From: Planktothrix tepida
Lineage (GTDB): Bacteria > Cyanobacteriota > Cyanobacteriia > Cyanobacteriales > Microcoleaceae
Reading direction: 5' to 3' (one strand)
NCBI RefSeq assembly: GCF_904830955.1
Contig: NZ_LR882970.1
DNA: 64,000 bases
Shown here: positions 11,916 to 47,185 of the stretch, piece after piece
How the letters are laid out: every line of letters begins with the position of its first letter
Numbering within the stretch: position 1 is the stretch's first letter
Program-made: the position numbers and the translations under genes
Notes under the pieces: model-generated
What the model was told of the DNA's origin: nothing
Seen by the model: only the letters and a program-made list of their open reading frames with translations
Databases searched by the model: none

Positions 11916-11928
11916 CTCTTTCCTAAAT

Positions 11929-13196: not shown

Positions 13197-13367
13197 AAGG
13201 AATTAAGAGAAATACAACTAATTCGTTAGTTTAGTGGATGATTTGAACAGAAATCAAGGATTGGTGATGTTTCGACATGAAGATCTAATAAAGATACACC
13301 TCTCACCCTTTAATTGATCCAAGGGTTTGAGAGGTTTAAGGGTATTAAAATTTGGGATTAATTGATA

Positions 13368-31061: not shown

Positions 31062-32384
31062 ATGCAAAACCAAGATCCAAAATTATTAGAAAAAATTCGT
31101 CAACAGTTTGACTCAGCCCCCTATCCTAGAATTCCCTTAGAACACTCCCCTAAAACCGATTATGAGTTGCTATTTATCCACAATTTAGTCACGCCTTATT
31201 ATTTAAAATATCAGAAAGTTATTAATACAGAAGGAAAAGTTATTTTAGATGCAGGCTGTGGAAGCGGATATAAATCCTTAATGTTAGCAGAAGCCAATCC
31301 AGGGGCTAAAATTGTAGGGATTGATATTTCTGAACAATCTATTGAACTGGCTCGTCAACGTTTAAAATTTCATGGGTTTGATAATACAGAATTTTATGTT
31401 TTACCGATAGAAAACTTACCAGAAATTGGGTATGAGTTTGATTATATTAATGCAGATGAGGTGCTTTATCTATGCCCAAATTTATTCAATGCAATGCAAG
31501 GGATCAAACAAGTTTTAAAACCCCAAGGTATTATTCGGGCTAATGTACATAGTTTATATCAAAGGGTCGGTTATTTTAGGGCGCAATCTCTGTTTAAACT
31601 CATGGGAGTCATGGATGAAACTTCTCAAGAATTGAAGGTTGAGATCGCTAGAGAAACAATAGAATCCATCAAAGATGAAGTGGTACTCAAGACACAAACT
31701 TGGAATAGTCCAGATTATAAAAATGACGAATGGTTGCTGGTTAATTATTTACTTCAAGGGGATAAAGGCTATACAATCCCAGAGGTTTTTGCGGTTTTGA
31801 AGGCAACTGATTTACAATTGATCAGTATGGTAAAATGGCGACAATGGCAGTTACTAGATTTATTTAAAGATCCTGATAACTTACCTGCGTTTCTAGCCTT
31901 GAGTTTATCCGAAATTTCTATCGAGGAACAGCTACATTTATTTGAGTTAATTAACCCCGTGCATCGGTTATTAGATTTTTGGTGTGGTCATTGTGAGCAA
32001 GAATTGATTCTCCCGGTGTCTGAATGGGCTGAAGTTGATTGGCAAACGGCACGGGTTGATTTACATCCTCAACTCAGAACGACTCAAGCTAAAGCAGACT
32101 TAATTGAATGTATTCAGACCCATAGACCTTATGAAATTAGCCAATATGTGAAGTTACCCACTCGCATACCCATCACCCTTGAGAGTAGTCGGGCAGCCTG
32201 TTTACTGCCGTTATGGGATGGAAAACAGACGGTGATCTCCCTGGCAGAACGGTGGCAACAAATCTATCCTCTTGATCCCATTACCCTAGAACCCATTACT
32301 GTCCAGAGGGCACTGCAACAGATCAAAGAAGTCCTCATCACCCTGGATGCCTTTCTGTATGTGCTTCTGGAGCATTCCGGGTGA
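31062..32384 (+). CDS. Class I SAM-dependent methyltransferase with C-terminal extension
   Basis: Motif I VILDAGCGSGYKS; motif post-I IVGIDIS. Confidence 0.65.
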   Translation: MQNQDPKLLEKIRQQFDSAPYPRIPLEHSPKTDYELLFIHNLVTPYYLKYQKVINTEGKVILDAGCGSGYKSLMLAEANPGAKIVGIDISEQSIELARQRLKFHGFDNTEFYVLPIENLPEIGYEFDYINADEVLYLCPNLFNAMQGIKQVLKPQGIIRANVHSLYQRVGYFRAQSLFKLMGVMDETSQELKVEIARETIESIKDEVVLKTQTWNSPDYKNDEWLLVNYLLQGDKGYTIPEVFAVLKATDLQLISMVKWRQWQLLDLFKDPDNLPAFLALSLSEISIEEQLHLFELINPVHRLLDFWCGHCEQELILPVSEWAEVDWQTARVDLHPQLRTTQAKADLIECIQTHRPYEISQYVKLPTRIPITLESSRAACLLPLWDGKQTVISLAERWQQIYPLDPITLEPITVQRALQQIKEVLITLDAFLYVLLEHSG

Positions 32385-32487
32385 AATAAAAAAAATTTTT
32401 GTAGGGGTGATATGAAAGGTTGAGAAAGTGGGTAAGTTAGAACTACCAGATAAAAAGTTAAACATCCCCCCAAGAGGAGAAAAACCT

Positions 32488-33015
32488 ATGAAGACCGAAT
32501 TTAAAGCGAAATTCCTGCAATACGTTGCTAATAGAAAAAAAGAAGAAGGTTTCACCTTAATTGAATTGTTAGTTGTTATTATCATTATCGGTATTCTGGC
32601 TGCGATCGCTCTGCCTTCCTTCCTCAACCAAGCTAACAAAGCCAAACAGTCTGAAGGAAAACAATATCTTTCTTCCATTAACAAAGGTCAACAAGCTTAC
32701 TACGCTGAAAATACACAGTTTGGAGCAACCATTTCAGAATTAGGGATTGGTTTAAAAACCCAAACCTCTAACTTTGTCTATGACAATGGAGTTGCTACTG
32801 GTGGTACTGGAGCATCATCCTCAGCTTCCCCTGCTTCCTCTGCAATGAAAGCTTATGCGGCAGGTGTCGGCTTAAGTGGAACAGGCGAAGCAAAAACAAC
32901 CTCTACTGTTCTCTGTGAAGAAGTTGTAGCTGCAAACTGGCAGGATCCTGTTAGTATTGGATTCTCTACTACTGGGCCAATTTGTGGAACCAACCAAAGT
33001 GCAGTAACGAAATAA
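32488..33015 (+). CDS. pilA: Type IV pilin (PilA-like major pilin) precursor. The ORF could also start at 32428, but the SD favours 32488.
   Basis: Cyanobacterial-type long leader ending …KKEEG|FTLIELLVVIIIIGILAAIALPSF (prepilin peptidase site G|F, Glu+5). Ser/Thr/Gly-rich C-terminal region. AGGAG SD upstream of 32488. Confidence 0.8.
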   Translation: MKTEFKAKFLQYVANRKKEEGFTLIELLVVIIIIGILAAIALPSFLNQANKAKQSEGKQYLSSINKGQQAYYAENTQFGATISELGIGLKTQTSNFVYDNGVATGGTGASSSASPASSAMKAYAAGVGLSGTGEAKTTSTVLCEEVVAANWQDPVSIGFSTTGPICGTNQSAVTK

Positions 33016-33064
33016 TAGCTTAAGTCTAACCAGTCTTTCTGGTTCAGAATATGAATCATTGAGA

Positions 33065-33095
33065 GCGGGTAGTATGGAAAATACTGCCCGCTTTC
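33065..33095 (+). terminator. Intrinsic terminator after pilA
   Basis: gcgggtagtat-ggaaa-atactgcccgc hairpin (11 bp, one G-U) followed by tttc. Confidence 0.55.
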
Positions 33096-33119
33096 ATGCA
33101 ATAAATTTGCACAAATTAT

Positions 33120-35369
33120 TTGAGTTCTATGAAATCTAATCTTAGTCTAAGTGTTTATTCTGATTGGGAACAAAAAGCCAAGCAGTATTGGGAAGAAAAA
33201 AACTATACCCAATCGGCAAAATTGTATGAAGCTGCGATTGAAAGAGAACCTGATGTTAAATCTCTATACTGGTATCTAGGCTTAATGTTATTATTGCAAG
33301 GACAAGAAGTGGAAGCTCAAACCACTTGGTTCTTGGCAATGACCGAAGGTGAACCGGATCAAGTTGAGCAGTGGACGCAAGAATTAATCCAAGTTTTAGA
33401 AACTGAAGCTGAACGACAAAGAATTACCCTCGGAGACTGTACAACAGCCTGGATTATTCGCCAGCATATTCGAGAAATTAATCCCACAGATATTAATAAT
33501 CTTTTACATTTAGTGGGCTTATCAACCTTACTGAACACTTATTCCGATGAGGTGCTAGTTGAATTCGGAATTTTAGAGTTATTTCAATCTAATGTTATTG
33601 TTCCAGAAGACGTTAATAATGACTTATTACTTGAAGTTTTAAATAATGTTTTAGACCAAGCTCCTCAACAGCCTTTATCTTATGAATTAGTAGAAACCAC
33701 TGTTCCTTATCTGTCTGATATTCAGTCCTATATGGGAGTCTTAGTTCCCGTTATCTATCAATTAGCGTATTCTCGAAGTCAACATCCTTTAGCAATTAAA
33801 TTCACTGAACAAGGCTTAAAATTCGATCCCAAGCATCCTGAATTATGGCGATGTTTATCGACGTTGTATCAAGATATCGGGGAATATGCAAAGGGGATAG
33901 AAGTTGCAAAACATTGTTATTCTGTAATGGATAATTTTCCTGATCAAGTCTATGCAACTTTTTTATTGCTTCGGGGGTTAATGAGTGCTGGTGGACGCTG
34001 GACAGAATTCTGCACAACGATAGAAAATTATCAGTTGATGCTCAATCGTTTATTGGAAGAAAAGCCAACCTTAGCTTATGATTTGGCTGTGCGCTCTTTT
34101 TCAACAACATTTTTCTTTCCCTATTATCAAGATCAACCCCGCGAAAACTACTCGCTGCGTCGTCAGGTTTCTGAATTTATCCAGTCTAATATAGAAACTC
34201 AAAATACAGAAACAGTCAAGTATTGTCGGGGTTGGAAATCTCGTTCAAAAACAAATATTTTAGCTGAAAAACGCTTAAATATTGGTTATGTTTCCCACTG
34301 TTTAAGAAATCATTCGGTCGGTTGGTTAGCGAGGGGTTTATTTCAACATCATGACCATGATAAGTTTAAAATTCATAGTTATTTATTCGCAGCACAAAAG
34401 AATCATAATGAGGTACAAGATTGGTACGTTAGTAAAAGTGATAAAGCCCATGGATTAGGGTTAGATGGAAAAGAAGTGGCTAAAGTTATTTATGATGACG
34501 AGATTGATATTTTAGTAGATCTCGACAGTTTAACCTTGACATCAACCTGTGAAACCTTAGCTCTTAAACCAGCACCCATACAAGTTACTTGGTTAGGTTG
34601 GGATGCTTCATCGGTTCCCAGTGTCGATTATTTTATGGCTGACCCTTACGTTTTACCTGAAGATGCTCAAGACTATTATCAGGAAACAATTTGGCGTTTA
34701 CCTAATACTTATTTAGCAGTAGATGGGTTTGAAATCGCAATTCCTAGCCTGCGACGGGACGAATTAGGGGTTTCTAATGATGCCATTCTGTATTTTACGG
34801 CTCAACGAGGCTATAAATATAACCCTGATACGGCTAAATTACAGCTTCAAATTTTGAAAGCTGTTCCTAATAGTTATTTTTTGATTAAAGGGATGGCTGA
34901 TCAAGAATCTTTGAAAACTTTTTATGCTGAAATTGCTGAATCTGTTGGGGTCGATTGCGATCGCTTAAAATTATTACCTTTATCCCCAACAGAAGCGAGT
35001 CATCGAGCTAATTTAGCGATCGCAGATGTAGTTCTTGATACCTATCCCTATAATGGTGCTACAACCACGATGGAAACCCTGTGGATGGGTGTTCCAATGG
35101 TGACAAAGGTTGGGCAACAATTCGCCGCCCGTAATAGTTATACGATGATGATTAATGCCGGAATTACAGAAGGTATTGCTTGGACAGATGAAGAATATGT
35201 GGAATGGGGAATTAAGCTAGGAACTGATGAAAATTTACGGCAACAAGTTACTTGGAAATTAAGAAAAAATAGACAAACTGCCCCGTTATGGAATGCGGAA
35301 CAATTTACCCGTGAGATGGAGAATGCTTATCAACAAATGTGGCAGAGATATATTGAGGGTAAGAATTAA
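33120..35369 (+). CDS. TPR-repeat protein fused to a GT41 (O-GlcNAc-transferase/SPINDLY-like) glycosyltransferase domain
   Basis: N-terminal TPRs. C-terminal GT41 pattern (GYVSHCLRNHSVGWL…IQVTWLGWDASSVPSVDYFMADPYVLPED…LPNTYL…TYPYNGATTTMETLWMGVPMVT). Confidence 0.7.
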   Translation: MSSMKSNLSLSVYSDWEQKAKQYWEEKNYTQSAKLYEAAIEREPDVKSLYWYLGLMLLLQGQEVEAQTTWFLAMTEGEPDQVEQWTQELIQVLETEAERQRITLGDCTTAWIIRQHIREINPTDINNLLHLVGLSTLLNTYSDEVLVEFGILELFQSNVIVPEDVNNDLLLEVLNNVLDQAPQQPLSYELVETTVPYLSDIQSYMGVLVPVIYQLAYSRSQHPLAIKFTEQGLKFDPKHPELWRCLSTLYQDIGEYAKGIEVAKHCYSVMDNFPDQVYATFLLLRGLMSAGGRWTEFCTTIENYQLMLNRLLEEKPTLAYDLAVRSFSTTFFFPYYQDQPRENYSLRRQVSEFIQSNIETQNTETVKYCRGWKSRSKTNILAEKRLNIGYVSHCLRNHSVGWLARGLFQHHDHDKFKIHSYLFAAQKNHNEVQDWYVSKSDKAHGLGLDGKEVAKVIYDDEIDILVDLDSLTLTSTCETLALKPAPIQVTWLGWDASSVPSVDYFMADPYVLPEDAQDYYQETIWRLPNTYLAVDGFEIAIPSLRRDELGVSNDAILYFTAQRGYKYNPDTAKLQLQILKAVPNSYFLIKGMADQESLKTFYAEIAESVGVDCDRLKLLPLSPTEASHRANLAIADVVLDTYPYNGATTTMETLWMGVPMVTKVGQQFAARNSYTMMINAGITEGIAWTDEEYVEWGIKLGTDENLRQQVTWKLRKNRQTAPLWNAEQFTREMENAYQQMWQRYIEGKN

Positions 35370-35502
35370 AAATTAAGCCCTTCAAGTTAGCTAGCCATGG
35401 TCAAGGATTCTCCCTTGCTTATTGGTAGTGGGGGTATCCGTAGAACTGAGCATTCAATTTCAGATCACAAACTAAGTGAGTAAAATTTTAAATTCTATCT
35501 TT

Positions 35503-37896
35503 TTATAAATCATAAACAGGAATTTTTTCTCCATTAAAATTAGCGATCGCATTTTGATCTTCATGTAATAGAATCATGCGGGCAGTCAAACGAGATCCTA
35601 GAGCCTGACTTTGCTGATCAGTTAATTGTCCTGTGAGGAGAATTTCTAATCCGACAGTGACATCCAATTCAGTTTCCATGAAGAAATTCATGACCATGCT
35701 AGATAAAATTACATTAGCATCTTCATCCAAAATATTCTGATTATTCAGATATAACGTTATTTCGTTTTGATTGGGTAGAGTTGCCAGGGTTTGGAAGAGA
35801 TGAGCTAACTCTAAATAAAGAGTTTCTTCCGGTTGTTTCCAATCAGGAAAAACAATATAATTTTTTTCTCTAAGTTTCCACAATTCCCAACCCCCATTTT
35901 CCAGCTTCAGACCTCGCCAATCTAGCAACTCTTCTAATGGAAACTGGGGAATTTGATCAGCATGAACTGCTTCAATTGCGGTGGAGTTTTCCAGGTCTAA
36001 ACAAATTCGACCTTGGACAATTGAAAGTAAATTTGACCACTGGGGTTGAGTTAACTGACCCAGGAGAGAAACATCTGGCCCCTCTTCCACATCTAATTCA
36101 TCTTCTATCAGAAGATTCATCATCATACTCGATAACGTTAAATCTGCATCTTCATCGCCCATTCCTTGATGATCAATCAATAGTTTAATTTGACGTTTAT
36201 CAAGATGATTAATCAGAGTTTTGATGATAGCACTTAACTGGGAATACAGTTGTTCTTCTTCTTGAGTCCAGTCAAGAAATACGATCAGATTAATGTCCTT
36301 TAATCCCAGATGACTAATATCCCCTTCTAATAAAGGTTGTAAACGCTCATAAAGTTGTTGTGCTTTGACAAAATCCGGCACAAACTGTAACACTCTTGTT
36401 ACCGCTTGTTCAGCCAAAACAATATCCTGTAATTGTTCTGCTGATTCGGCTAAATACCAAAAAACACGCCAATGATTACAGCCTAAATTAATAGCATTTT
36501 GAAACTCAAAAATGGCTTGAGGAATTCTTTGCTGATGACGTAAAACCAACGCCAACCATAACCTTAAATAGCCATCATTGATGTAATGATCTCGATACTG
36601 ACAAATGCTTCCTTCTCCTAATCCCAATAACATCGATGAAGCGGCAATTTGTTCTTCGGCTGCTAGAATTAAATCAATATTTTCTGCGGTTAAACTAACC
36701 AGAAAAGGTTCGGCTGTATGACCCAACGCTTTAATAAAGGTTTGCGCTCCCACAAACTTTTCAGGGAGTTCTAAAACATCCAGTAAAGATAGCGGTTGAT
36801 CTAATAAGCTCGATCCCATCGGAATGCCCCATTGACGTTCCCGCTTGGGTAATTGCATTAATTTTTCATAAATAGGATTCAATTGTTTAGCCGCATTTTC
36901 GGCACCAAAAAGCTGTTTAGCATATTCTTTAGCATTTTGCCCAAGTCGTATTCTTTCTTGAGGATGATGATAAAGATATTCAATGGCTTGGGTGTATTCT
37001 AATTGACTTTTAACGACTAATCCAGTATAATTATTAATAACTAATCGTTTAATTCCACCATGAGGAAAAACAACAGGGGGGATTCCAGCACACATGACTT
37101 CTTGTAAATTTAACTCTGCGGCGGCATAGGTATCTTTACAAAGCGGATAACCATAAATATCTAAGGTTTCAATCACGGATGCAATATCTTCAACGAAGCC
37201 TCGGAAATCAAATTTTTCAGACGCATTAATTTTTTCAGCTTGTTGTTTTAAATAATCTTCTACACCTCCACCACAAACCACAAAACGCACATCGGGAAGA
37301 TTCACCGCAGCACTCATGGCGACATAATCTTGGTGCATTTTACTAAAGCTAACACTGCCAATATAACCGACATTAAAATTTTGATGGGGTTTAGGCTGAA
37401 TATTAGCAACACGCTCAAAATCTGCCGCATCATAAACCATACCAATTTTTTCAATTCTCACGGCATCAGGGAGAGATTGAAAGACCGGAAGCTCATAGGA
37501 GTAAGGATTACAAGGAATAGCAAAATCAGCGTAATCTACTAATTCCTTAGTAATCACTTGAGGGGGATATTCTCCAGCAACATGAAACCAAATTAAGAGC
37601 CGAGTTTCGGGAAGTGGCGATCGCAAAAATTCAAACAGTTTGGGGTTATTCCAATAATGAACTTGAACAATATCAACGGTTTTAATAGCCTCAAAGATGT
37701 CCGTTTGATCCAAAGTATTAATAAATTTCATTCCCGATTGTTCAGCCAGTTCTAAAGCCATCCAATCAGGGGGTTTAAGGGAGACTAAATAATGTTCAAA
37801 TTGACCTAATCTTGATGAATATTTGGAGGTAGCTATCATGCCGCGAGCAGCACCACCCAAACACAACCAATCAATAATATGTAGAACCTTAATCAT
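35503..37896 (-). CDS. Glycosyltransferase (GT4/GT1-type GT-B fold) with a C-terminal duplicated uncharacterised ~100-aa domain
   Basis: GT-B C-terminal-domain motifs (…DIYGYPLCKDTYAAAELNLQEVMCAGIPPVVFPHGGIKRLV…). Two tandem copies of the domain carrying LSSMMMNLLIEDELDV / LSSMVMNFFMETELDV. Confidence 0.6.
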   Translation of the reverse strand: MIKVLHIIDWLCLGGAARGMIATSKYSSRLGQFEHYLVSLKPPDWMALELAEQSGMKFINTLDQTDIFEAIKTVDIVQVHYWNNPKLFEFLRSPLPETRLLIWFHVAGEYPPQVITKELVDYADFAIPCNPYSYELPVFQSLPDAVRIEKIGMVYDAADFERVANIQPKPHQNFNVGYIGSVSFSKMHQDYVAMSAAVNLPDVRFVVCGGGVEDYLKQQAEKINASEKFDFRGFVEDIASVIETLDIYGYPLCKDTYAAAELNLQEVMCAGIPPVVFPHGGIKRLVINNYTGLVVKSQLEYTQAIEYLYHHPQERIRLGQNAKEYAKQLFGAENAAKQLNPIYEKLMQLPKRERQWGIPMGSSLLDQPLSLLDVLELPEKFVGAQTFIKALGHTAEPFLVSLTAENIDLILAAEEQIAASSMLLGLGEGSICQYRDHYINDGYLRLWLALVLRHQQRIPQAIFEFQNAINLGCNHWRVFWYLAESAEQLQDIVLAEQAVTRVLQFVPDFVKAQQLYERLQPLLEGDISHLGLKDINLIVFLDWTQEEEQLYSQLSAIIKTLINHLDKRQIKLLIDHQGMGDEDADLTLSSMMMNLLIEDELDVEEGPDVSLLGQLTQPQWSNLLSIVQGRICLDLENSTAIEAVHADQIPQFPLEELLDWRGLKLENGGWELWKLREKNYIVFPDWKQPEETLYLELAHLFQTLATLPNQNEITLYLNNQNILDEDANVILSSMVMNFFMETELDVTVGLEILLTGQLTDQQSQALGSRLTARMILLHEDQNAIANFNGEKIPVYDL

Positions 37897-37912
37897 GACT
37901 TTAATCCTTCAA

Positions 37913-40900
37913 TTAGTTAATGGGTTTACGATAGACTCGAATGGTGGAAAATACCCCTGGAATAATCGGGAGATAGGCTTGAGTTTGGGTGGGATCTGTG
38001 GGATATAAAAGGGGAATATCGATTAGTTCACAACGATAGGTGTCTTCCATAAGTTCCTGACACGCTTGACGAATCCCCGGTTCATTTCCGCCATGATGAG
38101 ATAAGATTGCACTACGATTCTCATCATTAAGGGCAGGTAAGTAATCATGGAACATCATAATTCCACCGGGTTTTAACAAGGGATAATAGTTAATAATATC
38201 TTGTTTGACTCCTTCATAACTGTGATCTCCATCGACAAAAATGAAGGGAGGGAAATTGCTATCTTGTTCAAATTTCAGTTGCAGTTGAATCACGGCATCA
38301 TGGGAAAACTGTTGCAGATGGGTAACATTTTGTTTAACTTCTTGAAGAACCAGTTTTAACTGAGGATGTAACCCTGGATCGATGGCAAATCCTTGTAAAT
38401 TAGAGGTGAGTCGGTTTAAGGCTTTACAAGTTAGAAATAGAGAACTTCCTGCAAATGATCCAATTTCAATAAAACGCAAGGGTTGAGAAAATTCGGGTAA
38501 CAATTTTCGGAGAACATAATAGAGTTGAAATCGTTCATTTTTCGACATTTGGCTTTGAATCCCATAAACAACTGGATCATCTTGATTAAAGTCGTTTAGT
38601 AGGTTGGGTTCAATAATGGGATTAAGAGGAAATTGATCAGGGGTTGTCAACCAAACTCCTGTATAATCAATCGGATTCAAATTGAATTTAAGGTGATTTT
38701 TTTCTTCAAATTCATGTAAAGCTTTTTTACAGCCTTCCCAATGACCATAATTATCAACTTGGATAAACCCATCATTAACCACGCGGTCAAAAAGCTGTTC
38801 TAAAATGACTTTTGTAGATTCATACCAATCACCATCCATGTGCAAGAGTGCAATTACCCCAACTGAATTTCTGAATTGAGGTAAGGTGTCTTGGAAATAT
38901 CCTTTAACTGTACGAACAACATCAGAAACACCCAATTTTGCACAGAGATTTAAAACACTAGATTCCGGTGCCGCACAACTTCCTTGTGTCAAACCGAGGG
39001 ACTCTGCTGATACACCTTGATATCGATCAAATTCAGAGGGTTTAGGTAAACCTTGAAAGGAATCAAAAGCATATAGTAATCGAGGTTGTTTACTATATCT
39101 TGTAAGGACAGCCGCTAGTAATGCAGTTGAACCCCCTTTTTCTACACCACACTCCACAAAATTACCCGGAATATTATCAATACAAACCTTTTTCGCTAAG
39201 GAAAACAGTGAATATAATCGTTCTTCGCTCAGTCCGGTATAAGGAGAAACAATCTGTAATAATTCTTGAAATTCTGGATAATCTGGTGGAAGGGATTGAG
39301 ATTTAATATTGGTAGATTTACTTTTGATAGATTGAGGAATTGATGCGCGAATTTTTGCTAGAGTCTGCTTTTTCAAAAAGCCATTTGTTGCCCAAGTTAA
39401 GTTATATCCAAAAAAGTCACAATATTCTCCATCAATTTCATAGTCTTGGGGATGTTCTGATAAAAAGGACTTTAAAGCTTGATGGGGGCCACTATTATAA
39501 GAAGCATCTTGAACAATATCAGAAATAATGCCATCCTCAACAATAATATATTCTCCTTGATCCAGATAAGCATGGAAGAAATCTAACACTGCTTTACTGG
39601 TTGTAAATGAATGATCTGCATCCTCAATCACTAATAAAGGGCGGGGTAGGGATTGAATGAATTTAGGGGATAACGTTTCCGCTAAATTACTTCCATCGCC
39701 TTCTAAAAAGGTAACGCGAGGATGGGAAACTTGAGTCACTTTGACAATATCAATGGAATAAACATGACCTTCAATTCCAAAGTTATTCATTAAATCTCCA
39801 AACCATAAGGCACTTCCTCCGCTTTTAGAACCAATTTCAATAATAGTCTGAGGTTTAATTTTCCAGAGCAATACCGGATAAATCGAATAATCAAAGGGAT
39901 TTTTTTGTAACGGAACTCCTTTGTAAGAAAAGTTATGTAAAGCATTTTGAATCGACATCATTAATTCATAAGGCAAAGCGGTATTCCAGGGTCGTTCATG
40001 GGTGGGAATTTTTGCTTTTTCAGGTCGAATCAAGGCTTGAGTTAAAGATTGAACTTGAGCTTGAGCTTCAGGGTGATTGGGGTTATTTTCTAGTTCCTGT
40101 TTAGCTGCTGCTAGTGCTTCTTCATATCGACCGACTGCACTTAAACAAACGGCTCGAATATAGTGCATTTCTGGGATAAATATTCCGGCTTCTTTGTTTT
40201 TTTCAGCACAACGTAAAGCAGCCACTTTTTGACCTTGATTGAATAAAGAAATAGCTTTTTCAATCTGAGCTTTAATTTTTTGTTTTGCTTCAGTGGATAA
40301 CTGTTCTAACAGCCGTTGACCTTGGGAGTGATTAGGGTTCAAATTCAATAATGCTTTGAGGGAATCAAGAGACTCAAATAATTGACCTAGACGAGCTTCA
40401 GCAATCGCTTTAGCGTAATAAACCCCTGATTGCTCTGGAGCAATTTCCAGTACCTCTTTAAAGAGATTGAGAGCTTCTAAATTTTCATTTTTATTGAGAG
40501 ATTCAATTCCTTGGGATAAACGTTCTATCCCCTCTGAATTTAGTTTTTCTTGAGTCGGAGATACAGTAGAACTAAACATAATTGCCTCAGTCCAATGATC
40601 AGCTTGACGGTTACGCATTACAACAGTTGGATGTTGCAGGGGAAAACTAATGGGTTGTGTGGGTAAATTAGCCAGTTGAGATTCCCCTTTCGTATGGGTT
40701 GCATCGGCTCTAAAACCAATATTTGAAACTAGATTAACGTGAGGAAGAATCGTTAAGCCTTGATTCGCCCAACAAGCAAATGTCCAAGCATAATCCCAAG
40801 TATTAAATCCTTCATAGGCATCTTGAAAGATTCTTGACCAATAGGCGATCACTTCAGGATTTTCTAGGATCTGTTGTAACCTCCCTGTGTCTCTAATTGA

Positions 40901-42064
40901 CGGCCATAATTTCATTTCTAAATCATACAATTTCCAAGCTCTGCGCCAAGTTGCCCAGCCCCAAATATGATTGTACCGAGAAAAGTAGTAACTAGCCCCT
41001 GGATGATTGTGTCCAAATTGAAAATTATTACCTGAGATTGCCATAATTAGTTCATCATGGCGATATCGTTCTAATAATTCTTCACAAAATCGGAAAAATG
41101 TCACATCGGGTAAACAATCATCTTCAAGAATAATGGCTTCTTCAACAGTATTAAAAACCCAATTTAAGCCACTGGAAACTCGATGACGACAGCCTAAGTT
41201 AATATCAGAATAGTGGGTTAAAACTTCACAATCCCAATCCACTTGATTAATAATTGCTCTGGTGGCTGCACATTTTTGAAATTCACCGTTTACATTCCGT
41301 CGCGGGCCATCAGCAATGACCAGGAGTTTTTCGGGTTTCACCTGACGAATTGCATTAAACACTTGCTGCGTTGTGTCCGGTCTGTTGAAAATCATTAAAC
41401 AAACCGGAGTTGTTAATTGGGGTTTTTGATCAAGTTCAGATAAATTTTTAAGCGGATAACTTACCCCAGGTTTTCTAGCTTCTGCATAAATAGATTCATG
41501 CTTTCTCGTTTCTAAATCTAAACCGGGTTCAAACTCCCTGAGCTTAACATTTTCAAAACCAACATTAGCAATAATTATGGGTAAGTTTTCGTTATCAAAC
41601 AGATAACGATGATGACCATCCATATAAGCGATATAATTAATAAAATCTATTTTAGAATGATAGTGATAGGCAGGGGTATAAAGACAATACTTTTCAGGAT
41701 CGAATTGATCGGGTTTCTCATAAGATTCTATATAAATTCTGGCATCGGGGACAGCTATTTTAAAAATACCTCCGGGTTTTAAAACGCGATAGCATTCTGA
41801 AAGCAAGTTCAGCATCGGATCAGGAAACGAAAAGTGTTCTAATAGATGAGAGGAGTAAATTTCTTCTACGCAGTTATCAGGAAAGGGTAGAGGTTTTGAC
41901 AAATCCATACATAAATCACTATTGGGATCTAAATCCATTGTGAGCCACCCTTCCATTCTCTTCTGGGAAGAACCTAACTCAATTTTGATGGGTTTTCCCC
42001 TTTCTAAAATCAACTGAATTAAATGTTGATTTTTGATGGCAATCTGTGATAAAAAGTCATTCAT
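37913..42064 (-). CDS. 1383-aa multidomain enzyme: class I SAM-MTase + GT-A-like glycosyltransferase + TPR repeats + CmcI-family MTase + TylF/MycF-family O-MTase + a further class I MTase
   Basis: Successive domain signatures read from the translation (VLKPGGIFKIAVPD; LMIFNRPD…ILEDDCLPD; TPR block; IIEIGSKSGGSALWF; FVECGVEKGGSTALLAAVL…DSFQGLP; IEIGSFAGSSLFL…MFHDY). Confidence 0.6.
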   Translation of the reverse strand: MNDFLSQIAIKNQHLIQLILERGKPIKIELGSSQKRMEGWLTMDLDPNSDLCMDLSKPLPFPDNCVEEIYSSHLLEHFSFPDPMLNLLSECYRVLKPGGIFKIAVPDARIYIESYEKPDQFDPEKYCLYTPAYHYHSKIDFINYIAYMDGHHRYLFDNENLPIIIANVGFENVKLREFEPGLDLETRKHESIYAEARKPGVSYPLKNLSELDQKPQLTTPVCLMIFNRPDTTQQVFNAIRQVKPEKLLVIADGPRRNVNGEFQKCAATRAIINQVDWDCEVLTHYSDINLGCRHRVSSGLNWVFNTVEEAIILEDDCLPDVTFFRFCEELLERYRHDELIMAISGNNFQFGHNHPGASYYFSRYNHIWGWATWRRAWKLYDLEMKLWPSIRDTGRLQQILENPEVIAYWSRIFQDAYEGFNTWDYAWTFACWANQGLTILPHVNLVSNIGFRADATHTKGESQLANLPTQPISFPLQHPTVVMRNRQADHWTEAIMFSSTVSPTQEKLNSEGIERLSQGIESLNKNENLEALNLFKEVLEIAPEQSGVYYAKAIAEARLGQLFESLDSLKALLNLNPNHSQGQRLLEQLSTEAKQKIKAQIEKAISLFNQGQKVAALRCAEKNKEAGIFIPEMHYIRAVCLSAVGRYEEALAAAKQELENNPNHPEAQAQVQSLTQALIRPEKAKIPTHERPWNTALPYELMMSIQNALHNFSYKGVPLQKNPFDYSIYPVLLWKIKPQTIIEIGSKSGGSALWFGDLMNNFGIEGHVYSIDIVKVTQVSHPRVTFLEGDGSNLAETLSPKFIQSLPRPLLVIEDADHSFTTSKAVLDFFHAYLDQGEYIIVEDGIISDIVQDASYNSGPHQALKSFLSEHPQDYEIDGEYCDFFGYNLTWATNGFLKKQTLAKIRASIPQSIKSKSTNIKSQSLPPDYPEFQELLQIVSPYTGLSEERLYSLFSLAKKVCIDNIPGNFVECGVEKGGSTALLAAVLTRYSKQPRLLYAFDSFQGLPKPSEFDRYQGVSAESLGLTQGSCAAPESSVLNLCAKLGVSDVVRTVKGYFQDTLPQFRNSVGVIALLHMDGDWYESTKVILEQLFDRVVNDGFIQVDNYGHWEGCKKALHEFEEKNHLKFNLNPIDYTGVWLTTPDQFPLNPIIEPNLLNDFNQDDPVVYGIQSQMSKNERFQLYYVLRKLLPEFSQPLRFIEIGSFAGSSLFLTCKALNRLTSNLQGFAIDPGLHPQLKLVLQEVKQNVTHLQQFSHDAVIQLQLKFEQDSNFPPFIFVDGDHSYEGVKQDIINYYPLLKPGGIMMFHDYLPALNDENRSAILSHHGGNEPGIRQACQELMEDTYRCELIDIPLLYPTDPTQTQAYLPIIPGVFSTIRVYRKPIN

Positions 42065-42111
42065 TTTTTAATCCTCTTTATAAGTTTTAAACACAATCTC
42101 ACTATCATCAT

Positions 42112-43371
42112 TTAATTATCTTGAGTAGGAGAGGGTTTGGGATTCATGACTTGAAAACATCCTTTTCCTAAAATAGATTGTTTCTGGCTGGGAACTCCCT
42201 GGCTTTCTAAAATATCAAATTTCCTAAAAAACAAAGAGGTACAATTTTTATAAGTGTAGCTAGAAATAATCCCCCAGAAATCCAGACGTTTATAACCTTC
42301 ATTGGCTAATTTTTGAACAGAGGAGTCATAATTGTAATCATCGGTATTATCAAAGATAATTAAGCCCCTTTCTTTAATGTGATTTAAACTTATTTCCAAA
42401 CACCGATTTCGATTAGCTCCATCAACAATAATAACATCAAAGTAATCCGATGGAAAGGAAGAAATCATTTCTGCATATTCTTGTTCATCTTCTCGTAAAA
42501 AAATTTGAACATTTTTAGGCATTTTAGCCTTGATTTCTTCAAACCAATTGGCATCATTTTCAATAGAAATAACTTCTGAAACTCGTTGTGACCACCATAA
42601 GGTTGAGTTACCTGCTCCAAATTCAAAGACTTTAAAATCAGGCTTAACTTTATCTTCTAAAAATTCAATCGCTGGATAGGTATACCAGGGAAGGGGTTGA
42701 TTATCTTGAGTTACAGGTTTTCTTTGATATAGTGAATTCAACCATCCTGATGTCAGAAAATAATTAATTCCCGGAGGAAGATTAGCCGCAACTTCATACC
42801 AATTTAAAGATAGAATTAAACTATGAGCTACTGGAATTGAATACCCTTTTTCTACTAAGTCAGGATAATCTGACAATAGCTGTTTTCCTAATTCAGCAGA
42901 TTCAACAAATCTTTGAGCGTTAAAACATTGTTGGGTGAGTTGTAATTTAAAGTTTTTTTGTTGTTCATTAATTGTCGATAGAAATTCATATTTTTCTAAA
43001 TCAGTTACTTGCTCTAAGGTGACAATCGGAATAATATCTGACCATTCATTGAGTTGGCTTTTGTTGACGTTATTACCTAATATCTTATAATTTATTTTTA
43101 AAATGGAGTTAAACCATTCTTCAAAATTTTGGGAACTAACTAAACTAATATTAAGAGCATCTTCTAATTGTTCATTTCCCTCGATCATCAAGTTCATCAT
43201 TACACCTGATACATACAGGTCTGCTTCTTGACCAGGAAACTGATCATAGTCGATAAAAATAGATAAATTGCTTCTGTCAGGATGGTTGAGAAAGGCTTTG
43301 ATTATTGTTGTCAATTCTAACAAAAGCTCAGGCTCTGGTGATGCCCAGTTGAACAGAACCAAAAAATTCAT
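42112..43371 (-). CDS. Uncharacterised N-terminal domain (same family as the repeats in the GT4 protein) fused to a class I SAM-dependent methyltransferase
   Basis: N-terminal …LYVSGVMMNLMIEGNEQLEDAL…. C-terminal MTase motif I VFEFGAGNSTLWW and …IIVDGANRN…. Confidence 0.6.
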   Translation of the reverse strand: MNFLVLFNWASPEPELLLELTTIIKAFLNHPDRSNLSIFIDYDQFPGQEADLYVSGVMMNLMIEGNEQLEDALNISLVSSQNFEEWFNSILKINYKILGNNVNKSQLNEWSDIIPIVTLEQVTDLEKYEFLSTINEQQKNFKLQLTQQCFNAQRFVESAELGKQLLSDYPDLVEKGYSIPVAHSLILSLNWYEVAANLPPGINYFLTSGWLNSLYQRKPVTQDNQPLPWYTYPAIEFLEDKVKPDFKVFEFGAGNSTLWWSQRVSEVISIENDANWFEEIKAKMPKNVQIFLREDEQEYAEMISSFPSDYFDVIIVDGANRNRCLEISLNHIKERGLIIFDNTDDYNYDSSVQKLANEGYKRLDFWGIISSYTYKNCTSLFFRKFDILESQGVPSQKQSILGKGCFQVMNPKPSPTQDN

Positions 43372-43618
43372 AGACTCGGAGCCTTCTAGGGGATTATGGT
43401 TTTAGTATACCCTGTGGGTTTCAGAAAATGATCATTTTTGCTGTATTAATTTTTTGTAAGATATTATAGTTTAGATTAGTCAGTGTTTAAATCGCTTGTA
43501 TAATATTTGACTAGCTGATGATTTAACGAAATTAATCTGTTAAAATAGATCTGAAGTACAATTGATTTATTTTTTCATAGTTTAATCGTTAACCTATATC
43601 TTGACCAGATAATAAATC

Positions 43619-46600
43619 ATGAAAATTATAAACTTTTTAGATCTTTATTCCTCAATAGAAGAATCCCATGATTTAGTTAATAACTGGTCACTCTTATTTC
43701 CTGAGCTACAGTTTATTTTAAAACTGGGAGATCCTGAAAACAATATTTATCTTCCTCTATTGTTAAACTTAGCAGTTCGCAATTTAGAAAATCAGGAAAT
43801 TTATTGCCAAATCGGGGTAAATTATGTTAGTAGTTTAATGGGTGCGTTACTGAATAATCCTGACTCTATAGCTTATGTGGTCGATTCCTTCTATGAAAAA
43901 GATGAATCCCAAAGTTATGAATCTAGCGTTGAAATTTTAGATGCTTTAAATTTTAGTAATCAAGTATTTTTATGTGATCAAGAACCAGAAGAATTTTTAT
44001 TAGAACTAAGAGAAGTTGAATTTGAGAATCAAATCGGTGTTTGTTTCTACGATTGGAAAACTGATTATCGTTCTGTTCTGAATAGCTTATTATTGATTAA
44101 TTCTTTTTTATCTGATCAAGCATTAATTATTGTTAATGATGCAAATCATGCCAGTGTTCAGCAAGCTATATGGGATTTTATCGCAGCAACACCTGAATGT
44201 CAAGTTGAACTAGAACTATTACCTCAGACTGATGAACCACTCCTGTTTGAAGATAGGATTTTTATTATCAGTCGGGATATCAACAGAACTTTTAACTATC
44301 AAACAGTGGCTTTGCTAAACCATCGCCAACCTCAAGTCATTCAAAGAATTTCTCAGTTACATCAATTCGACAAATTATTAAATAAAATTTATCAGGAAGC
44401 TGTCGATTTTCATCAAAACGAAAAATTTAATGAAGCCGAAAACAAATATCAAGAATTTATTGATTTTAATCCAAATCATCTGGAAGCGTGGATGAATTTA
44501 GGAAAGTTATATTATCAAATCGAAAATTATCAAGCATCTCTGCACGCTAGTTACAAGTTAATAGCACTGACTCCTCAAAGGTTTGACGGATATTATCAAT
44601 TAGGTCAATGCTTTGAAAAATTGAATCAAGTTGAACAAGCGATCGCAGCCTACGAAAAAACAATCGCATTAAAACCTGATTATCTTGATGCCTATAATAA
44701 CTTAGGAAATCTCTTAACGCAACAAGGGCAATTTGCAGAAGCAGAAACAGTTTATCGTCAAGCAATAAAGATTAACCCTAATCATTTTGGTAGTTACTTG
44801 AATTTAGGCAATTTATTTTTATTGCAAAATCAATTTCAATTCGCTAAAGCAACCTATCAAAAAGGTTTAAGGATTATTCCAGATCAGCCTGATATTCTGC
44901 ATAACTTAGCTCTAACGGATGAAATAGAAAAAAATCCGATTCCTTATTATCGTAGTTTTGGCGATCGCTTGTATGAATTAGGCAATTATGAAGGAGCGAT
45001 CACAGAATATCAAAAAATCCTCAATTTGCAAGCGGGAGATGTTGATCTTTATGAAAAACTCAATCACTGTTACTGGCAACTCAACCAACCGAATGATGCC
45101 ATAGATATCTTGAAAATAGGAACAAAAATTTATCCTGATTTTGCCCCCCTTCATTTTACATTAATTATGAATCTTCTTTATCAAGGAAGAACAGAAGAAG
45201 CCGTTAAACAAGCGGAACTAGCATCAGAATACTTACCCAAAGATTATACCTTTACGTTGCTTAAACATTTAATTGTTCCGATGTTGTATCACTCCGTTGA
45301 GGAAATCAATAATTATCGTGAACGATTTAATCAAGGATTACAAAATTTAATTGCAACGACCGATTTAAATGATCCTGAAACCTTAGAACAATCGTTTTTA
45401 GGAATGGGACGATTTACCAATTTTTATTTAGGGTATCAAGCGAGAAATGTGGTTGAAGAACAACGCATTTATGGTCATTTTCTTTATCAAATAATGTCGA
45501 AGAAATATCCCCAGTGGGTTCAAACGCTAACTCTCCCTCCTGTAGAAGATAAAATAAGAGTTGGATATGTTTCCAGTTATTTACATTGTTATAGTGGTTC
45601 ACTCTGGTTAATCGGTTGGTTGCGCTATGCGAATCGTGATCAGTTTGAAATTTACGCTTATTATACGGGGAATTCTCCTGATCCTGTTACGGAAAAATTT
45701 AGACAATATAGTCATAAATTTTATCATATTCCTAATAATTTAGAAGCGGTTGCTGAACAAATTATTAAGGATCAACTGCATATTTTAGTCTATCCCGAAA
45801 TTGGCATGAACCCCCCAACAATGGAACTTGCAGCATTGCGTTTAGCACCTATTCAATGCACAGCTTGGGGTCATCCCGTCACATCAGGACTTCCAACCAT
45901 TGATTATTTCCTATCGAGTCAATTAATGGAACCGGAAAACGCACAGAAACATTATTCAGAAGCCTTAATTTTATTACCGAATATTGGGGTTGCTTATCCG
46001 AAACCTCAAGATATTCCACCGTTAGTTAAAACTCGATTAGACTATAATTTACCCGAAGATACGGTGATTTATTTATGTTGTCAAGCTCCCTTTAAATATC
46101 TTCCCCAATATGATTATATTTTACCGGAAATTGCGATCAAGGTTCCGAACGCTAAGTTTTTATTTTTCCGAGGAACATTACTCAATGATCGCTTAAATCA
46201 AGCTTTTTCTAACTATGGCTTAAATTATCAGGATTATTGTTTACATCGAAAAGTTGACGAACGCTTTGATTATTTAATGTTAAACCAACTTTCGGATGTG
46301 TTTTTAGATACCTTTACTTGGTCGGGAGGAAATACCTCTTTAGAAGCGATCGCTTGTTATTTACCTATTGTCACTTGTCCTGGGGAATTTATGCGAGGTC
46401 GTCATGCAGATAGTTTCCTAAAAATGATGGGTTTAACAGAAACTATTGCAAAAAATGAAGCAGAATATATTGAAATTGCGGTCAAATTAGGGTTAGATTC
46501 TATATGGCGTGAAACAATTTCTCAACAGATGGGTGAACGCCAAAATCTTCTATTTGATGATCAAGTTTGTGTGACTGCGCTAGAGGAATTTTATCAAGCT

Positions 46601-46624
46601 GTCACTAAAGCTAGACTTTCATAA
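43619..46624 (+). CDS. Second TPR + GT41 (OGT/SPINDLY-like) protein, 1001 aa, with N-terminal domain distantly resembling the same uncharacterised domain
   Basis: TPR block (aa ~260-520). GT41 C-terminal pattern (VGYVSSYLHCYSGSLWLIGWL…APIQCTAWGHPVTSGLPTIDYFLSS…). N-terminal …VNYVSSLMGALLNNPD…. Confidence 0.65.
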   Translation: MKIINFLDLYSSIEESHDLVNNWSLLFPELQFILKLGDPENNIYLPLLLNLAVRNLENQEIYCQIGVNYVSSLMGALLNNPDSIAYVVDSFYEKDESQSYESSVEILDALNFSNQVFLCDQEPEEFLLELREVEFENQIGVCFYDWKTDYRSVLNSLLLINSFLSDQALIIVNDANHASVQQAIWDFIAATPECQVELELLPQTDEPLLFEDRIFIISRDINRTFNYQTVALLNHRQPQVIQRISQLHQFDKLLNKIYQEAVDFHQNEKFNEAENKYQEFIDFNPNHLEAWMNLGKLYYQIENYQASLHASYKLIALTPQRFDGYYQLGQCFEKLNQVEQAIAAYEKTIALKPDYLDAYNNLGNLLTQQGQFAEAETVYRQAIKINPNHFGSYLNLGNLFLLQNQFQFAKATYQKGLRIIPDQPDILHNLALTDEIEKNPIPYYRSFGDRLYELGNYEGAITEYQKILNLQAGDVDLYEKLNHCYWQLNQPNDAIDILKIGTKIYPDFAPLHFTLIMNLLYQGRTEEAVKQAELASEYLPKDYTFTLLKHLIVPMLYHSVEEINNYRERFNQGLQNLIATTDLNDPETLEQSFLGMGRFTNFYLGYQARNVVEEQRIYGHFLYQIMSKKYPQWVQTLTLPPVEDKIRVGYVSSYLHCYSGSLWLIGWLRYANRDQFEIYAYYTGNSPDPVTEKFRQYSHKFYHIPNNLEAVAEQIIKDQLHILVYPEIGMNPPTMELAALRLAPIQCTAWGHPVTSGLPTIDYFLSSQLMEPENAQKHYSEALILLPNIGVAYPKPQDIPPLVKTRLDYNLPEDTVIYLCCQAPFKYLPQYDYILPEIAIKVPNAKFLFFRGTLLNDRLNQAFSNYGLNYQDYCLHRKVDERFDYLMLNQLSDVFLDTFTWSGGNTSLEAIACYLPIVTCPGEFMRGRHADSFLKMMGLTETIAKNEAEYIEIAVKLGLDSIWRETISQQMGERQNLLFDDQVCVTALEEFYQAVTKARLS

Positions 46625-46759
46625 AAAATTGGTGTTCTTTCTGAATTTCGTTGAATTTCATTATGGACTTGAGCGATTGTTAATTCCAACTGTCCTAAAC
46701 GTTCTAACTCAATTTCAATATGCGTCACCCGTTCCTGCACTTGACTGGCTGAACTGGAG

Positions 46760-47185
46760 TTATTTTTGATTTCCCTGTTTTAATTGAGTTAATAACTGTT
46801 GATAATCTTGTCGATCAGGATTTAATTTTATTAAATTATTTAAGGGTTCAATTGCTCCTTGAATGTTATTTTGTTCTAGTCTAACCTTCACTAAACCTTC
46901 TAAAGCAGTCGGGTTATTGGGTTCCCGTTTTAATACCGTTTCATAACCTTTTTCTTGCTTTTGTAATAAAGCACTTGCAGATTGTTCTTCTGTAGGTTGA
47001 GTGGGTTGAGGTTCGCGTTCAAAAACACCTTTAAAAACTTTGCCTAATCCAAAGATACTGGTTCCAAAAAAAGACACCATTGATAGCACAAGCACAATTT
47101 TTTGTATCTTCTTAGAGCGTTCCATTCGGCGCATACGCTCTGTCCCATATTGCCTTTCTAAGGATTCCTTCTCGACGGGATTCAT
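46760..47185 (-). CDS. Small membrane-anchored TPR-like protein, paralogous to the core of ORF 19161-20111
   Basis: Shared motif KGYETVLKREPNNPTALEGLVKVRLEQ; single TM. Confidence 0.45.
   Translation of the reverse strand: MNPVEKESLERQYGTERMRRMERSKKIQKIVLVLSMVSFFGTSIFGLGKVFKGVFEREPQPTQPTEEQSASALLQKQEKGYETVLKREPNNPTALEGLVKVRLEQNNIQGAIEPLNNLIKLNPDRQDYQQLLTQLKQGNQK

Follow-up and report, generated by a model that had tools for sequence, protein, structure and literature searches.

A pilA-ogtA-linked island of soluble glycosyltransferases and methyltransferases in Planktothrix tepida, a putative cytoplasmic system for pilin modification

The DNA analysed here is a 64,000-nucleotide stretch of contig NZ_LR882970.1 of Planktothrix tepida (assembly GCF_904830955.1), hereafter the window, of which positions 31062-47185 carry one prepilin gene, six genes for soluble enzymes and one gene for a small membrane-anchored protein with tetratricopeptide repeats (TPR). 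This block is probably a self-contained cytoplasmic island in which the major type IV pilin, PilA, would be O-glycosylated and its glycan extended and O-methylated, with lysine methylation of the pilin as a possible further step. The pairing of pilA with a gene for an O-GlcNAc transferase (OGT)-like enzyme is already known, and the locus extends this pairing and overturns nothing. New are a conserved modular extension of the pair that spans cyanobacterial orders, two conserved domains for which Pfam has no model (a GT13-like domain of GT-A fold, and a domain here called X) and a methyltransferase tightly linked to pilA that resembles protein-lysine methyltransferases (PKMTs).

Genes were called from the open reading frame (ORF) listing and from Pfam and NCBIfam scans of the window proteins. 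The pilA side of the island consists of the following features.

31062-32384, plus strand: MT440, a 440-aa class I S-adenosylmethionine (SAM) methyltransferase with a family-specific C-terminal half (Methyltransf_31, E=1.7e-28)
32488-33015, plus strand: pilA, type IVa major prepilin (Pilin_GH, E=6.7e-23; N_methyl, E=1.7e-9; TIGR02532)
33060-33096, plus strand: perfect 16-bp hairpin 3' of pilA (RNA fold)
33129-35369 (ORF from 33120), plus strand: GT41a, an OgtA-type protein glycosyltransferase with TPR and GT41 domains (Glyco_transf_41, PF13844, E=7.4e-50; TPR)

The pilA ORF opens at a GTG codon at 32428, but translation probably begins at the ATG at 32488, giving a typical cyanobacterial 21-aa leader, MKTEFKAKFLQYVANRKKEEG/FTLIELL (slash, cleavage site). 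In the cleavage region, ...KKEEG/FTLIELLVVIIIIGILAAIALP, the class III signal peptide, the G/F site, Glu5 and the hydrophobic N-terminal helix (KD19 maximum 3.18) are all present, so that the pilA-like gene with a long leader and a G/FTLIELL site reported in a preliminary description of this DNA is confirmed (Pilin_GH, N_methyl). Homologues numbered 7767, the best of them from Planktothrix, Microcoleus and Tychonema, and the matches in the PDB were to major pilins (Myxococcus PilA, Thermus PilA and Neisseria PilE). A C-terminal Lys (...V[T/S]K) is found in 119 of 120 homologues, and two Cys residues, the conserved disulphide pair, likewise in 119 of the 120. A Ser/Thr-rich loop, TGGTGASSSASPASS, occupies mature residues 83-97. 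That the protein is a major rather than a minor subunit is indirectly supported by its being the sole match to a prepilin motif scan of the window, by the strong 3' hairpin, by the hypervariable C-terminal half and invariant N-terminus of its family, and by its ogtA-adjacent orthology.

Folding of positions 33016-33118 gave -40.1 kcal/mol, whereas shuffled sequences averaged -18.4 (z=-7.0). Of the terminator previously assigned to pilA, the strong hairpin (z=-7) thus stands and the canonical character does not: the hairpin has no canonical T-run, for which reason a consensus terminator scan did not detect it. It is probably a (leaky) terminator or a stabiliser that separates pilA from ogtA. 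On the minus strand, a 132-aa ORF with a TTG start (32286-32684) lies antisense to the 3' end of the MT440 gene and the 5' end of pilA and is probably spurious; antisense RNAs have been reported inside the Synechocystis pilA1 operon (PMC4144903).

GT41a starts 113 bp downstream of pilA. Its PDB matches were SPINDLY (1.3e-55) and human OGT (5e-50), the former in a single continuous alignment of residues 218-745 that takes in the N-terminal TPRs and the bipartite GT41 catalytic domain. SPINDLY is an O-fucosyltransferase; the gap between the two scores is small and an inserted domain in OGT splits the alignment, so the comparison was not used to assign a donor sugar. The catalytic Lys, K566 (RGYKYNP), aligns with the SPINDLY Lys in NNLAKITP and corresponds to K445 of Synechococcus elongatus Ogt by motif, not by direct alignment. 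Orthologues of GT41a (53-78% identity) adjoin pilA in Nostoc, Anabaena, Dolichospermum, Planktothrix and Waterburya, and many metagenomic loci show this adjacency too, the positional orthologues in Nostoc being 54-68% identical to its catalytic region.

The link between pilin and glycosylation drawn in the preliminary description is experimentally documented in other cyanobacteria. According to PMC9306852, the TPR-GT41 protein Ogt encoded beside pilA in S. elongatus is required for glycosylation of PilA, GlcNAc (N-acetylglucosamine) was found on that pilin by lectin, and, of 201 cyanobacterial genomes, 77 have ogt beside a pilin gene; loss of ogtA in Nostoc punctiforme abolishes PilA accumulation and motility (Khayatan 2017, as cited in the same paper). 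A 2025 review also describes ogt-pilA adjacency as common (PMC12288463). By analogy with these orthologues, GT41a would transfer a sugar to PilA. In S. elongatus PCC 7942 (Synpcc7942_0048/0049 and 0051) and N. punctiforme (ogtA, Npun_F0677), as here, the pilin gene is followed by that of a soluble TPR and GT41 protein with the catalytic Lys conserved, but whereas the literature searched describes this pair alone, with 'hypothetical' neighbours, in the window it is surrounded by ~16 kb of other genes for glycosyltransferases and methyltransferases. No account of extra methyltransferase, GT4 or GT-A genes beside pilA-ogt was found in that literature. These additional genes are the following.

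35503-37896, minus strand: GT4 protein, 797 aa (GT4, E=9.5e-19, aa 1-350; TPR-like linker; two X domains)
35920-36294 and 35506-35862, minus strand: X copies of the GT4 protein, aa 535-659 and aa 679-797, respectively
37913-42064, minus strand: giant, a 1383-aa multi-enzyme (Pfam and AlphaFold2 (AF2)/Foldseek) with Methyltransf_11 (aa ~1-200), GT-A (216-500, nt 40565-41419), TPR (~520-670), CmcI (709-899, E=1.9e-36), TylF (941-1139, E=5.7e-45) and Methyltransf_24 (1199-1308, E=3.7e-38) domains
42112-43371, minus strand: 419-aa protein with an N-terminal X domain (aa 1-125, nt 42997-43371) and a weak Methyltransf_24-like region
43619-46624, plus strand: GT41b, a 1001-aa TPR and GT41 protein (Glyco_transf_41, E=7.4e-35; strong TPR matches)
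46760-47185, minus strand: 141-aa protein with TPR (TPR_19, E=2e-7) and one transmembrane (TM)-like segment (KD19 maximum 2.05)

The genes of the minus-strand block (419-aa protein, giant and GT4) are separated by 47 bp and 16 bp. The block converges on GT41a, the ends of the GT41a and GT4 genes lying 133 bp apart with no significant RNA structure in the intergenic region 35370-35502 (fold versus shuffle, z=-0.36), and a gap of 247 bp separates the 419-aa gene from the divergent GT41b. This arrangement agrees with the preliminary description, which had proposed two convergent operons plus a divergent GT41 gene, and its seven gene coordinates and domain calls were reproduced from the ORF listing and the Pfam and NCBIfam scans, including those of the two TPR-GT41 proteins (E=7.4e-50 and E=7.4e-35). 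Four further points required amendment. Seven enzyme genes had been counted around pilA, where there are six enzyme genes and pilA. For GT41b the TPR and GT41 domains stand, while the methyltransferase-like domain at the N-terminus is only a weak match (Methyltransf_24, E=0.005). All four methyltransferase domains reported for the giant are present, and a fifth catalytic domain, the GT-A domain at residues ~216-500, had been missed. The genes assigned to the island at 31062-46624 remain, and its right boundary moves to 47185 because homologues of the 141-aa protein recur in related loci (designated by L numbers), where they lie at 40-72% identity just upstream of the module formed by the convergent genes (L006, L007, L008, L011, L014, L019, L021, L023, L024 and L027). 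The 141-aa protein is a possible membrane anchor.

Sequence searches of Pfam, NCBIfam and the PDB gave no usable match for residues 205-510 of the giant, the C-terminal half of the GT4 protein or the N-terminus of the 419-aa protein, and structure prediction and fold search were therefore used. No other part of the giant is as conserved as residues ~216-500. The AF2 model, built from 20 homologues (pLDDT 85.5), has a GT-A fold, Rossmann-like and with a DxD-type motif; in the EDD motif (314-316), E314 and D316 are invariant in 14 and in 20 homologues. The closest Foldseek matches were the GT13 enzymes POMGnT1 (E=5e-12) and GnT-I (1.3e-11). No Pfam family was found at E<=5, and phmmer gave E=0.29 for POMGnT1; on the model, the domain is GT13-like at the level of fold, and membership in CAZy GT13 or Pfam GNT-I is not claimed. 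The resemblance to POMGnT1, an enzyme that extends protein O-glycans, supports a role in protein glycosylation.

The domain X, in turn, comprises ~127 aa, is Rossmann-like and has no Pfam model. A word-indexed homologue search with the C-terminal half of the GT4 protein returned 19 proteins, and further copies were located with a local hidden Markov model. The copy in the 419-aa protein is 30% identical to aa 535-659 of the GT4 protein (E=2e-17). The best structural matches include Asp1 and Gap1 of accessory-Sec glycoprotein export. X occurs fused to GT4, to Methyltransf_11 (MT11) plus GT-A, to GT-A plus DUF5672 plus GT41, and to Methyltransf_24 (MT24)-like proteins. The homologues of the giant show heavy shuffling of Methyltransf_11/23, GT-A, X, TPR, CmcI, TylF, Methyltransf_24, GT4, GT41, GT2, GT11 and FkbM domains, examples being a 783-aa MT11-GT-A-X-X protein of some Planktothrix and a 1261-aa GT-A-DUF5672-X-TPR-GT41 protein. 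That GT-A, X and GT41 occur fused within a single polypeptide provides independent evidence of their joint action. In the remainder of the 419-aa protein the Methyltransf_24 match (E=3e-5 to 5e-5) is below the Pfam cut-off; homologues of this C-terminal part lie directly upstream of the GT-A gene in L006, L008, L009, L011, L014, L023, L024 and L027. GT41b keeps the Lys in an APFKYLP motif, and orthologues of its catalytic domain (52-85% identity) are found within the pilA-linked module of L007, L008, L021, L027 and L081.

Regarding the methyltransferase domains of the giant, TylF scored 154 bits against PF05711 (cut-off 23) and matched NovP (6.7e-23), MycF (4e-20) and, more weakly, CalS11 (2.3e-7) in the PDB. 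CmcI scored 126 bits against PF04989 (cut-off 23.2) and 111.5 against the NCBIfam equivalog NF045824 (cut-off 400), which makes the domain a predicted member of the family and not the rhamnosyl O-methyltransferase equivalog. Residues 941-1139 and 709-899 thus strongly match the sugar O-methyltransferases TylF/MycF/NovP/CalS11 and mycobacterial rhamnosyl O-methyltransferase/CmcI, respectively, and on this homology the glycan would be an O-methylated deoxy-sugar. The known enzymes act in macrolide or glycolipid synthesis, whereas in the giant their relatives are fused with GT-A, TPR and two more methyltransferase domains. Since TylF, MycF, NovP and CmcI were originally reported from antibiotic pathways, these domains could be thought to tailor a small-molecule natural product, the pilin being adjacent by coincidence. 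This is extremely improbable: the island has no polyketide synthase, nonribosomal peptide synthetase, precursor gene of a peptide made on ribosomes and modified post-translationally (RiPP), or sugar-biosynthesis gene, and the methyltransferase domains are syntenic with pilA-ogtA across orders as well as fused to GT-A and TPR. Natural-product tailoring was rejected because core biosynthetic genes are absent.

The recurrence of the module was determined in GTDB species genomes by a scan for giant homologues seeded on the GT-A domain, from which 80 of at least 527 loci were taken and compared by tblastn with all window proteins and domains. A layout of conserved orientation was found. It begins with the TM and TPR gene and continues with an MT24-like gene, the GT-A gene (with or without MT11, CmcI and TylF-MT24), the X gene (with or without GT4) and, in some loci, GT41b; convergent with these stand the OgtA orthologue and, upstream of it, PilA and, in some loci, MT440. 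It is found in Desmonostoc, Nostoc (four species), Anabaena (two), Dolichospermum, Chrysosporum, Planktothrix paucivesiculata, Laspinema, Okeania, Waterburya and several metagenome-assembled genomes (MAGs), and the module stands beside ogtA-pilA in at least three orders (Nostocales, Oscillatoriales and Pleurocapsales). Among these 80 loci, 23 carry X beside the GT-A gene, 20 of them with enough flanking DNA. A convergent OgtA orthologue (53-78% identity) was present in 16 of these 20 and was followed by PilA in 12; in most of the four OgtA loci without PilA, the contig stops short of where pilA would be expected. None of the 57 GT-A loci without an X domain has an OgtA orthologue or PilA (Fisher p=3.5e-13), and a prepilin-motif scan of the 80 loci found pilins in those 12 only. 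X is accordingly the best single marker of pilA-ogtA linkage in these loci. The comparison of synteny across related cyanobacteria, proposed as a check in the preliminary description, thus shows the arrangement of module, ogtA and pilA to be kept across at least three orders, with OgtA in 16 of 20 loci.

In Planktothrix agardhii, a second Planktothrix MAG and one more assembly, the order MT440-pilA-GT41a-(second GT41)-...-GT4-giant is kept and the outer flanks differ. Enzyme content differs even between close relatives, which would accord with a pilus surface that diversifies from strain to strain. In Planktothrix sp. GU0601_MAG3 (L002/L003, 12908-20525) the second GT41, GT4 and giant genes are each split (594+131, 435+304 and 387+585 aa), which could reflect pseudogenisation of the module or assembly indel errors. 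Intact TnpB genes lie near pilA in two Planktothrix loci (L002, 4135-5400; L005, 6989-8203). Positions 42001-46000 of the window, with the 419-aa gene and GT41b, have a GC content of 0.31-0.34 versus ~0.38-0.45 elsewhere in the window and are also the most variable part among relatives, which hints at recent acquisition or exchange.

The GT-A domain itself, for which no Pfam model exists, has a range of at least 527 GTDB species genomes, and identity still amounts to 53-64% in Nitrospiraceae, Blastocatellia, Planctomycetota, Bacteroidetes, Thiobacillus, Chloroflexia and archaea, the archaea being methanogenic or anaerobic methanotrophic (ANME) lineages (Methanolobus, Methanosarcina and Methanoperedens); the loci in question are L015, L018, L030, L035, L052, L056, L067, L069, L075, L076, L078 and L080. 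The unusually high conservation across domains of life may be due to horizontal transfer or strong constraint.

In the proposed mechanism, GT41a would put the first O-linked sugar on Ser/Thr of PilA directly from a nucleotide sugar, as has been demonstrated for orthologues. From synteny and domain homology, GT4, the GT13-like GT-A domain and GT41b would extend the glycan, and CmcI, TylF and Methyltransf_24 would O-methylate its sugars, with a less certain role for Methyltransf_11. That the convergent module acts on PilA, as against another OgtA substrate, is suggested by the same synteny. The chemistry would be sequential, cytoplasmic and OGT-like, not en bloc from a lipid carrier, because TM-like segments are missing from all six enzymes and genes for a lipid carrier, flippase or oligosaccharyltransferase are lacking. 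More speculatively, the X domains, the TPRs and the TM and TPR protein may assemble the enzymes into a membrane complex at the site of prepilin insertion, and MT440 may methylate the pilin, with the conserved C-terminal Lys as candidate site. Sequential cytoplasmic O-glycosylation of a kindred type is known from flagellin glycosylation islands and from the Gram-positive serine-rich-repeat adhesins with GtfA/B and the Asp/Gap accessory proteins.

No polysaccharide-export, flippase, oligosaccharyltransferase or sugar-nucleotide synthesis genes were found across the 64-kb window. Pfam and NCBIfam scans of the island showed no membrane O-oligosaccharyltransferase of Wzy_C type and no lipid-linked glycan assembly or flippase domains, and there is no transporter gene inside it. 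The systems of Neisseria (PglL) and Pseudomonas (TfpO/PilO) resemble the island in that a type IVa major pilin is O-glycosylated and modifying genes stand beside pilA, but there an undecaprenyl pyrophosphate-linked glycan is flipped and transferred en bloc in the periplasm by a Wzy_C-type enzyme, and the island has no such gene. Pilin glycosylation of the oligosaccharyltransferase type was rejected, as no membrane enzyme is encoded in the island.

The absence of such genes also bears on the proposal that the glycosyltransferases and methyltransferases make an O-methylated polysaccharide (slime, sheath, hormogonium-type or O-antigen) coupled to pilus-driven gliding. Cyanobacterial exopolysaccharides (EPS) often contain O-methyl sugars, CmcI/TylF-type enzymes methylate rhamnose and other deoxyhexoses in glycolipids and natural products, and the GT4 protein weakly matches NCBIfam models of EPS and HpsP-type glycosyltransferases (E=1e-7 to 1e-10, well short of the cut-offs). 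This proposal is nevertheless improbable. An initiating phosphoglycosyl (polyprenyl-phosphate) transferase, a polymerase or flippase, Wza/Wzc and an ABC exporter are all missing from the island, the flanks and the whole 64-kb window; the enzymes are soluble and TPR-rich, two of the glycosyltransferases belong to the protein-glycosylating GT41 family, and it is pilA-ogtA, not genes of hps or wz type, to which they are linked. In three annotated copies of the module that have no pilin beside them (L010, L013 and L022), exporter, initiation, polymerase and flippase genes are likewise absent, so that the link to pilin drawn in the preliminary description survives the possibility, raised there, of a pilin-free module joined to polysaccharide export. 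A polysaccharide locus was rejected because genes for export and initiation are missing.

Regarding MT440, a metagenome scan seeded with an alignment of seven orthologues returned 42 full-length members, 36 of them with enough flanking sequence. A pilA gene adjoins MT440 in 27 of the 36 evaluable loci, usually with an OgtA orthologue next; it lies directly downstream in nearly all 27 and upstream in one (L092), at a distance of 100-600 bp in most and up to ~1.5 kb in three. The nine evaluable loci without adjacent pilA hold the most divergent members. In loci of Planktothrix, Nostoc and Chrysosporum, too, MT440 immediately precedes pilA. The family comprises 114 clusters (50% identity, E<=1e-30) with only generic annotation, and ten distant relatives that were checked are named only 'UbiE' or 'SAM-dependent methyltransferase'. 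When the MT440 profile was compared with the PDB, three characterised PKMTs were among the top five matches. The best was Mycobacterium tuberculosis Rv2067c (8hkr; 2.4e-18, residues 61-258), in an alignment that spans the catalytic core and the large helical dimerisation subdomain and leaves the C-terminal ~180 aa of MT440 unmatched; the match to rickettsial PKMT1 (1.1e-11) includes the N-terminal PY..PxE motif. Rv2067c (8HKR) and PKMT1/PKMT2 (5DNK, 5DOO), the best solved relatives, are 407-554 aa long versus 440, and PKMT1 and PKMT2 methylate a surface protein, OmpB, as the candidate target of MT440 is also a surface protein; the similarity to this class is moderate (E=2e-18 to 5e-11). On sequence and on adjacency to pilA, MT440 is likely to be a candidate protein-lysine methyltransferase.

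In Synechocystis, PilA1 is O-glycosylated and its C-terminal Lys trimethylated, and the pilA1 operon starts with sll1693, annotated as a methyltransferase of function stated to be unknown. No enzyme for the trimethyl-lysine at the pilin C-terminus was named, and no pilin-lysine methyltransferase of MT440 type described, in the literature searched. A more specific and rather doubtful version of the pilin-modifying island would have MT440 head an MT440-pilA-ogtA triad and trimethylate the C-terminal Lys of PilA, with the X-joined module as a cytoplasmic pilin glycan factory making O-methylated (deoxy)hexoses. If this were true, domain shuffling between strains would lead to diversity of the pilus surface.

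Several observations weigh against modification of PilA by the whole island. The globular domain and C-terminus of the pilin end up in the periplasm, and all island enzymes are predicted to be cytoplasmic, so that modification must precede or accompany membrane insertion; the cytoplasmic location of Ogt is recorded in PMC9306852, the available text of which gives no timing mechanism for cytoplasmic pilin modification. Expression of pilA in N. punctiforme requires SigF, that of ogtA SigJ, and the two genes are therefore not simply co-expressed, a split that fits the strong hairpin between pilA and ogtA. CmcI is confined to the closest relatives, and many Nostocales copies lack TylF-Methyltransf_24. 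MT440 is not beside pilA in L020, L021, L023 and L034, and its moderate likeness to lysine methyltransferases is suggestive only, because the generic methyltransferase 3mgg scores nearly as well against its profile (4.6e-16). Finally, four evaluable copies of the module have no OgtA orthologue or pilin nearby (L010, L013, L019 and L022, the absence in L019 being within 5.5 kb), and the module is therefore not exclusive to pilin.

These last copies bear on the reading that only pilA-ogtA, with or without MT440, acts on the pilin, and that the convergent module is a general cytoplasmic O-glycosylation and methylation toolkit for other secreted or surface proteins, placed beside ogtA through shared initiating GT41 chemistry or shared regulation. 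The pilin-free copies have other neighbours, namely a 675-aa RTX protein (L010), nonulosonic-acid genes (L022) and unrelated genes including SbcCD (L013); domain-shuffled relatives are very numerous in cyanobacteria; the S. elongatus ogt mutants are pleiotropic, according to PMC9306852; and in Microcystis a different filament protein, the CT pilin, is modified by a cluster with an OGT and a methyltransferase. Against this stand the arrangement of module and ogtA in 16 of 20 evaluable loci from at least three orders with differing outer flanks, and the absence, within the island of the window, of any other candidate substrate gene (for a protein with a signal peptide, a repeat-rich protein or a surface protein). 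A general toolkit without action on PilA is accordingly considered unlikely, though to be taken seriously; the copies as a whole suggest that the module is a protein-glycosylation toolkit with pilin as its usual partner.

In the pilin-free locus L010, from an Oscillatoriaceae MAG, the module has a GT4-X-GT41 fusion and a second TPR-GT41 gene, and its neighbour (11459-13486, plus strand) encodes the 675-aa protein with RTX calcium-binding repeats. This protein is a possible alternative substrate of the module and is reminiscent of oscillin, the glycoprotein of gliding Oscillatoriales. In L022 (2599-7702, plus strand), from Zarconia navalis, a 1914-aa GT-A / MT23 / GT4 / GT41 / MT24 protein unites the module in fused form and is preceded by genes for a DegT aminotransferase, NeuB and a nucleotidyl-transferase (cytidine monophosphate (CMP)-sugar-type, nonulosonic-acid pathway); such a pathway is typical of flagellin and pilin glycosylation islands.

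The Microcystis aeruginosa CT-pilus (MrpC) cluster resembles the island in that a gene for a filament subunit stands with genes for a GT41 protein (BH695_0839) and a methyltransferase, but differs in that the subunit is not a type IV pilin, the methyltransferase is a single FkbM protein, and GT4, GT-A and the X module are missing (PMC12397347). As a precedent, ten monosaccharides, each of 160 or 174 Da, are O-linked to the CT pilin (PMC12397347), masses that by arithmetic correspond to mono- and di-methyl-deoxyhexose (146+14 and 146+28).

The flanks of the island consist of unrelated housekeeping or mobile genes: one holds AI-2E transporter, HcyBio and patatin genes and a TnpB fragment, the other Uma2 and acyl-CoA dehydrogenase genes. 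The TnpB fragment (27422-27715, minus strand; 97 aa) has a Cas12f1-like/TnpB TNB domain and is the remnant of an IS605-family element. Genes for an NB-ARC/NACHT STAND ATPase (21891-23324), a patatin-like phospholipase (26227-27336) and a Uma2 nuclease-like protein (47258-48043), all on the minus strand, may be defence-related and unconnected with the island. At a distance of 11 kb, a histidine kinase gene (57742-60474, plus strand) encodes an ethylene-receptor-like N-terminus (ETR1_N, E=2e-39) with PAS and GAF domains, and a response regulator with multiple receivers, Hpt and GGDEF domains is encoded at 61420-63789 on the minus strand. In Synechocystis, ethylene acting via Etr1 decreases the transcripts of the sll1693-sll1696 pilA1 operon (PMC6508509).

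Type IV pili serve cyanobacteria in motility, DNA uptake, flocculation and biofilm control, functions that depend on pilin modifications. For such modifications the locus provides a list of genes by step: OgtA would attach the first sugar; GT4, GT-A and the second GT41 would extend it; CmcI, TylF and Methyltransf_24 would O-methylate the sugars; MT440 is the candidate lysine methyltransferase; and X and the TM and TPR protein are candidate scaffolds. If the sugars are O-methylated, this would provide an explanation for the 160 and 174 Da sugars of the Microcystis pilin. With a PKMT-like methyltransferase linked to pilA, it becomes directly testable which enzyme methylates the lysine of the pilin.

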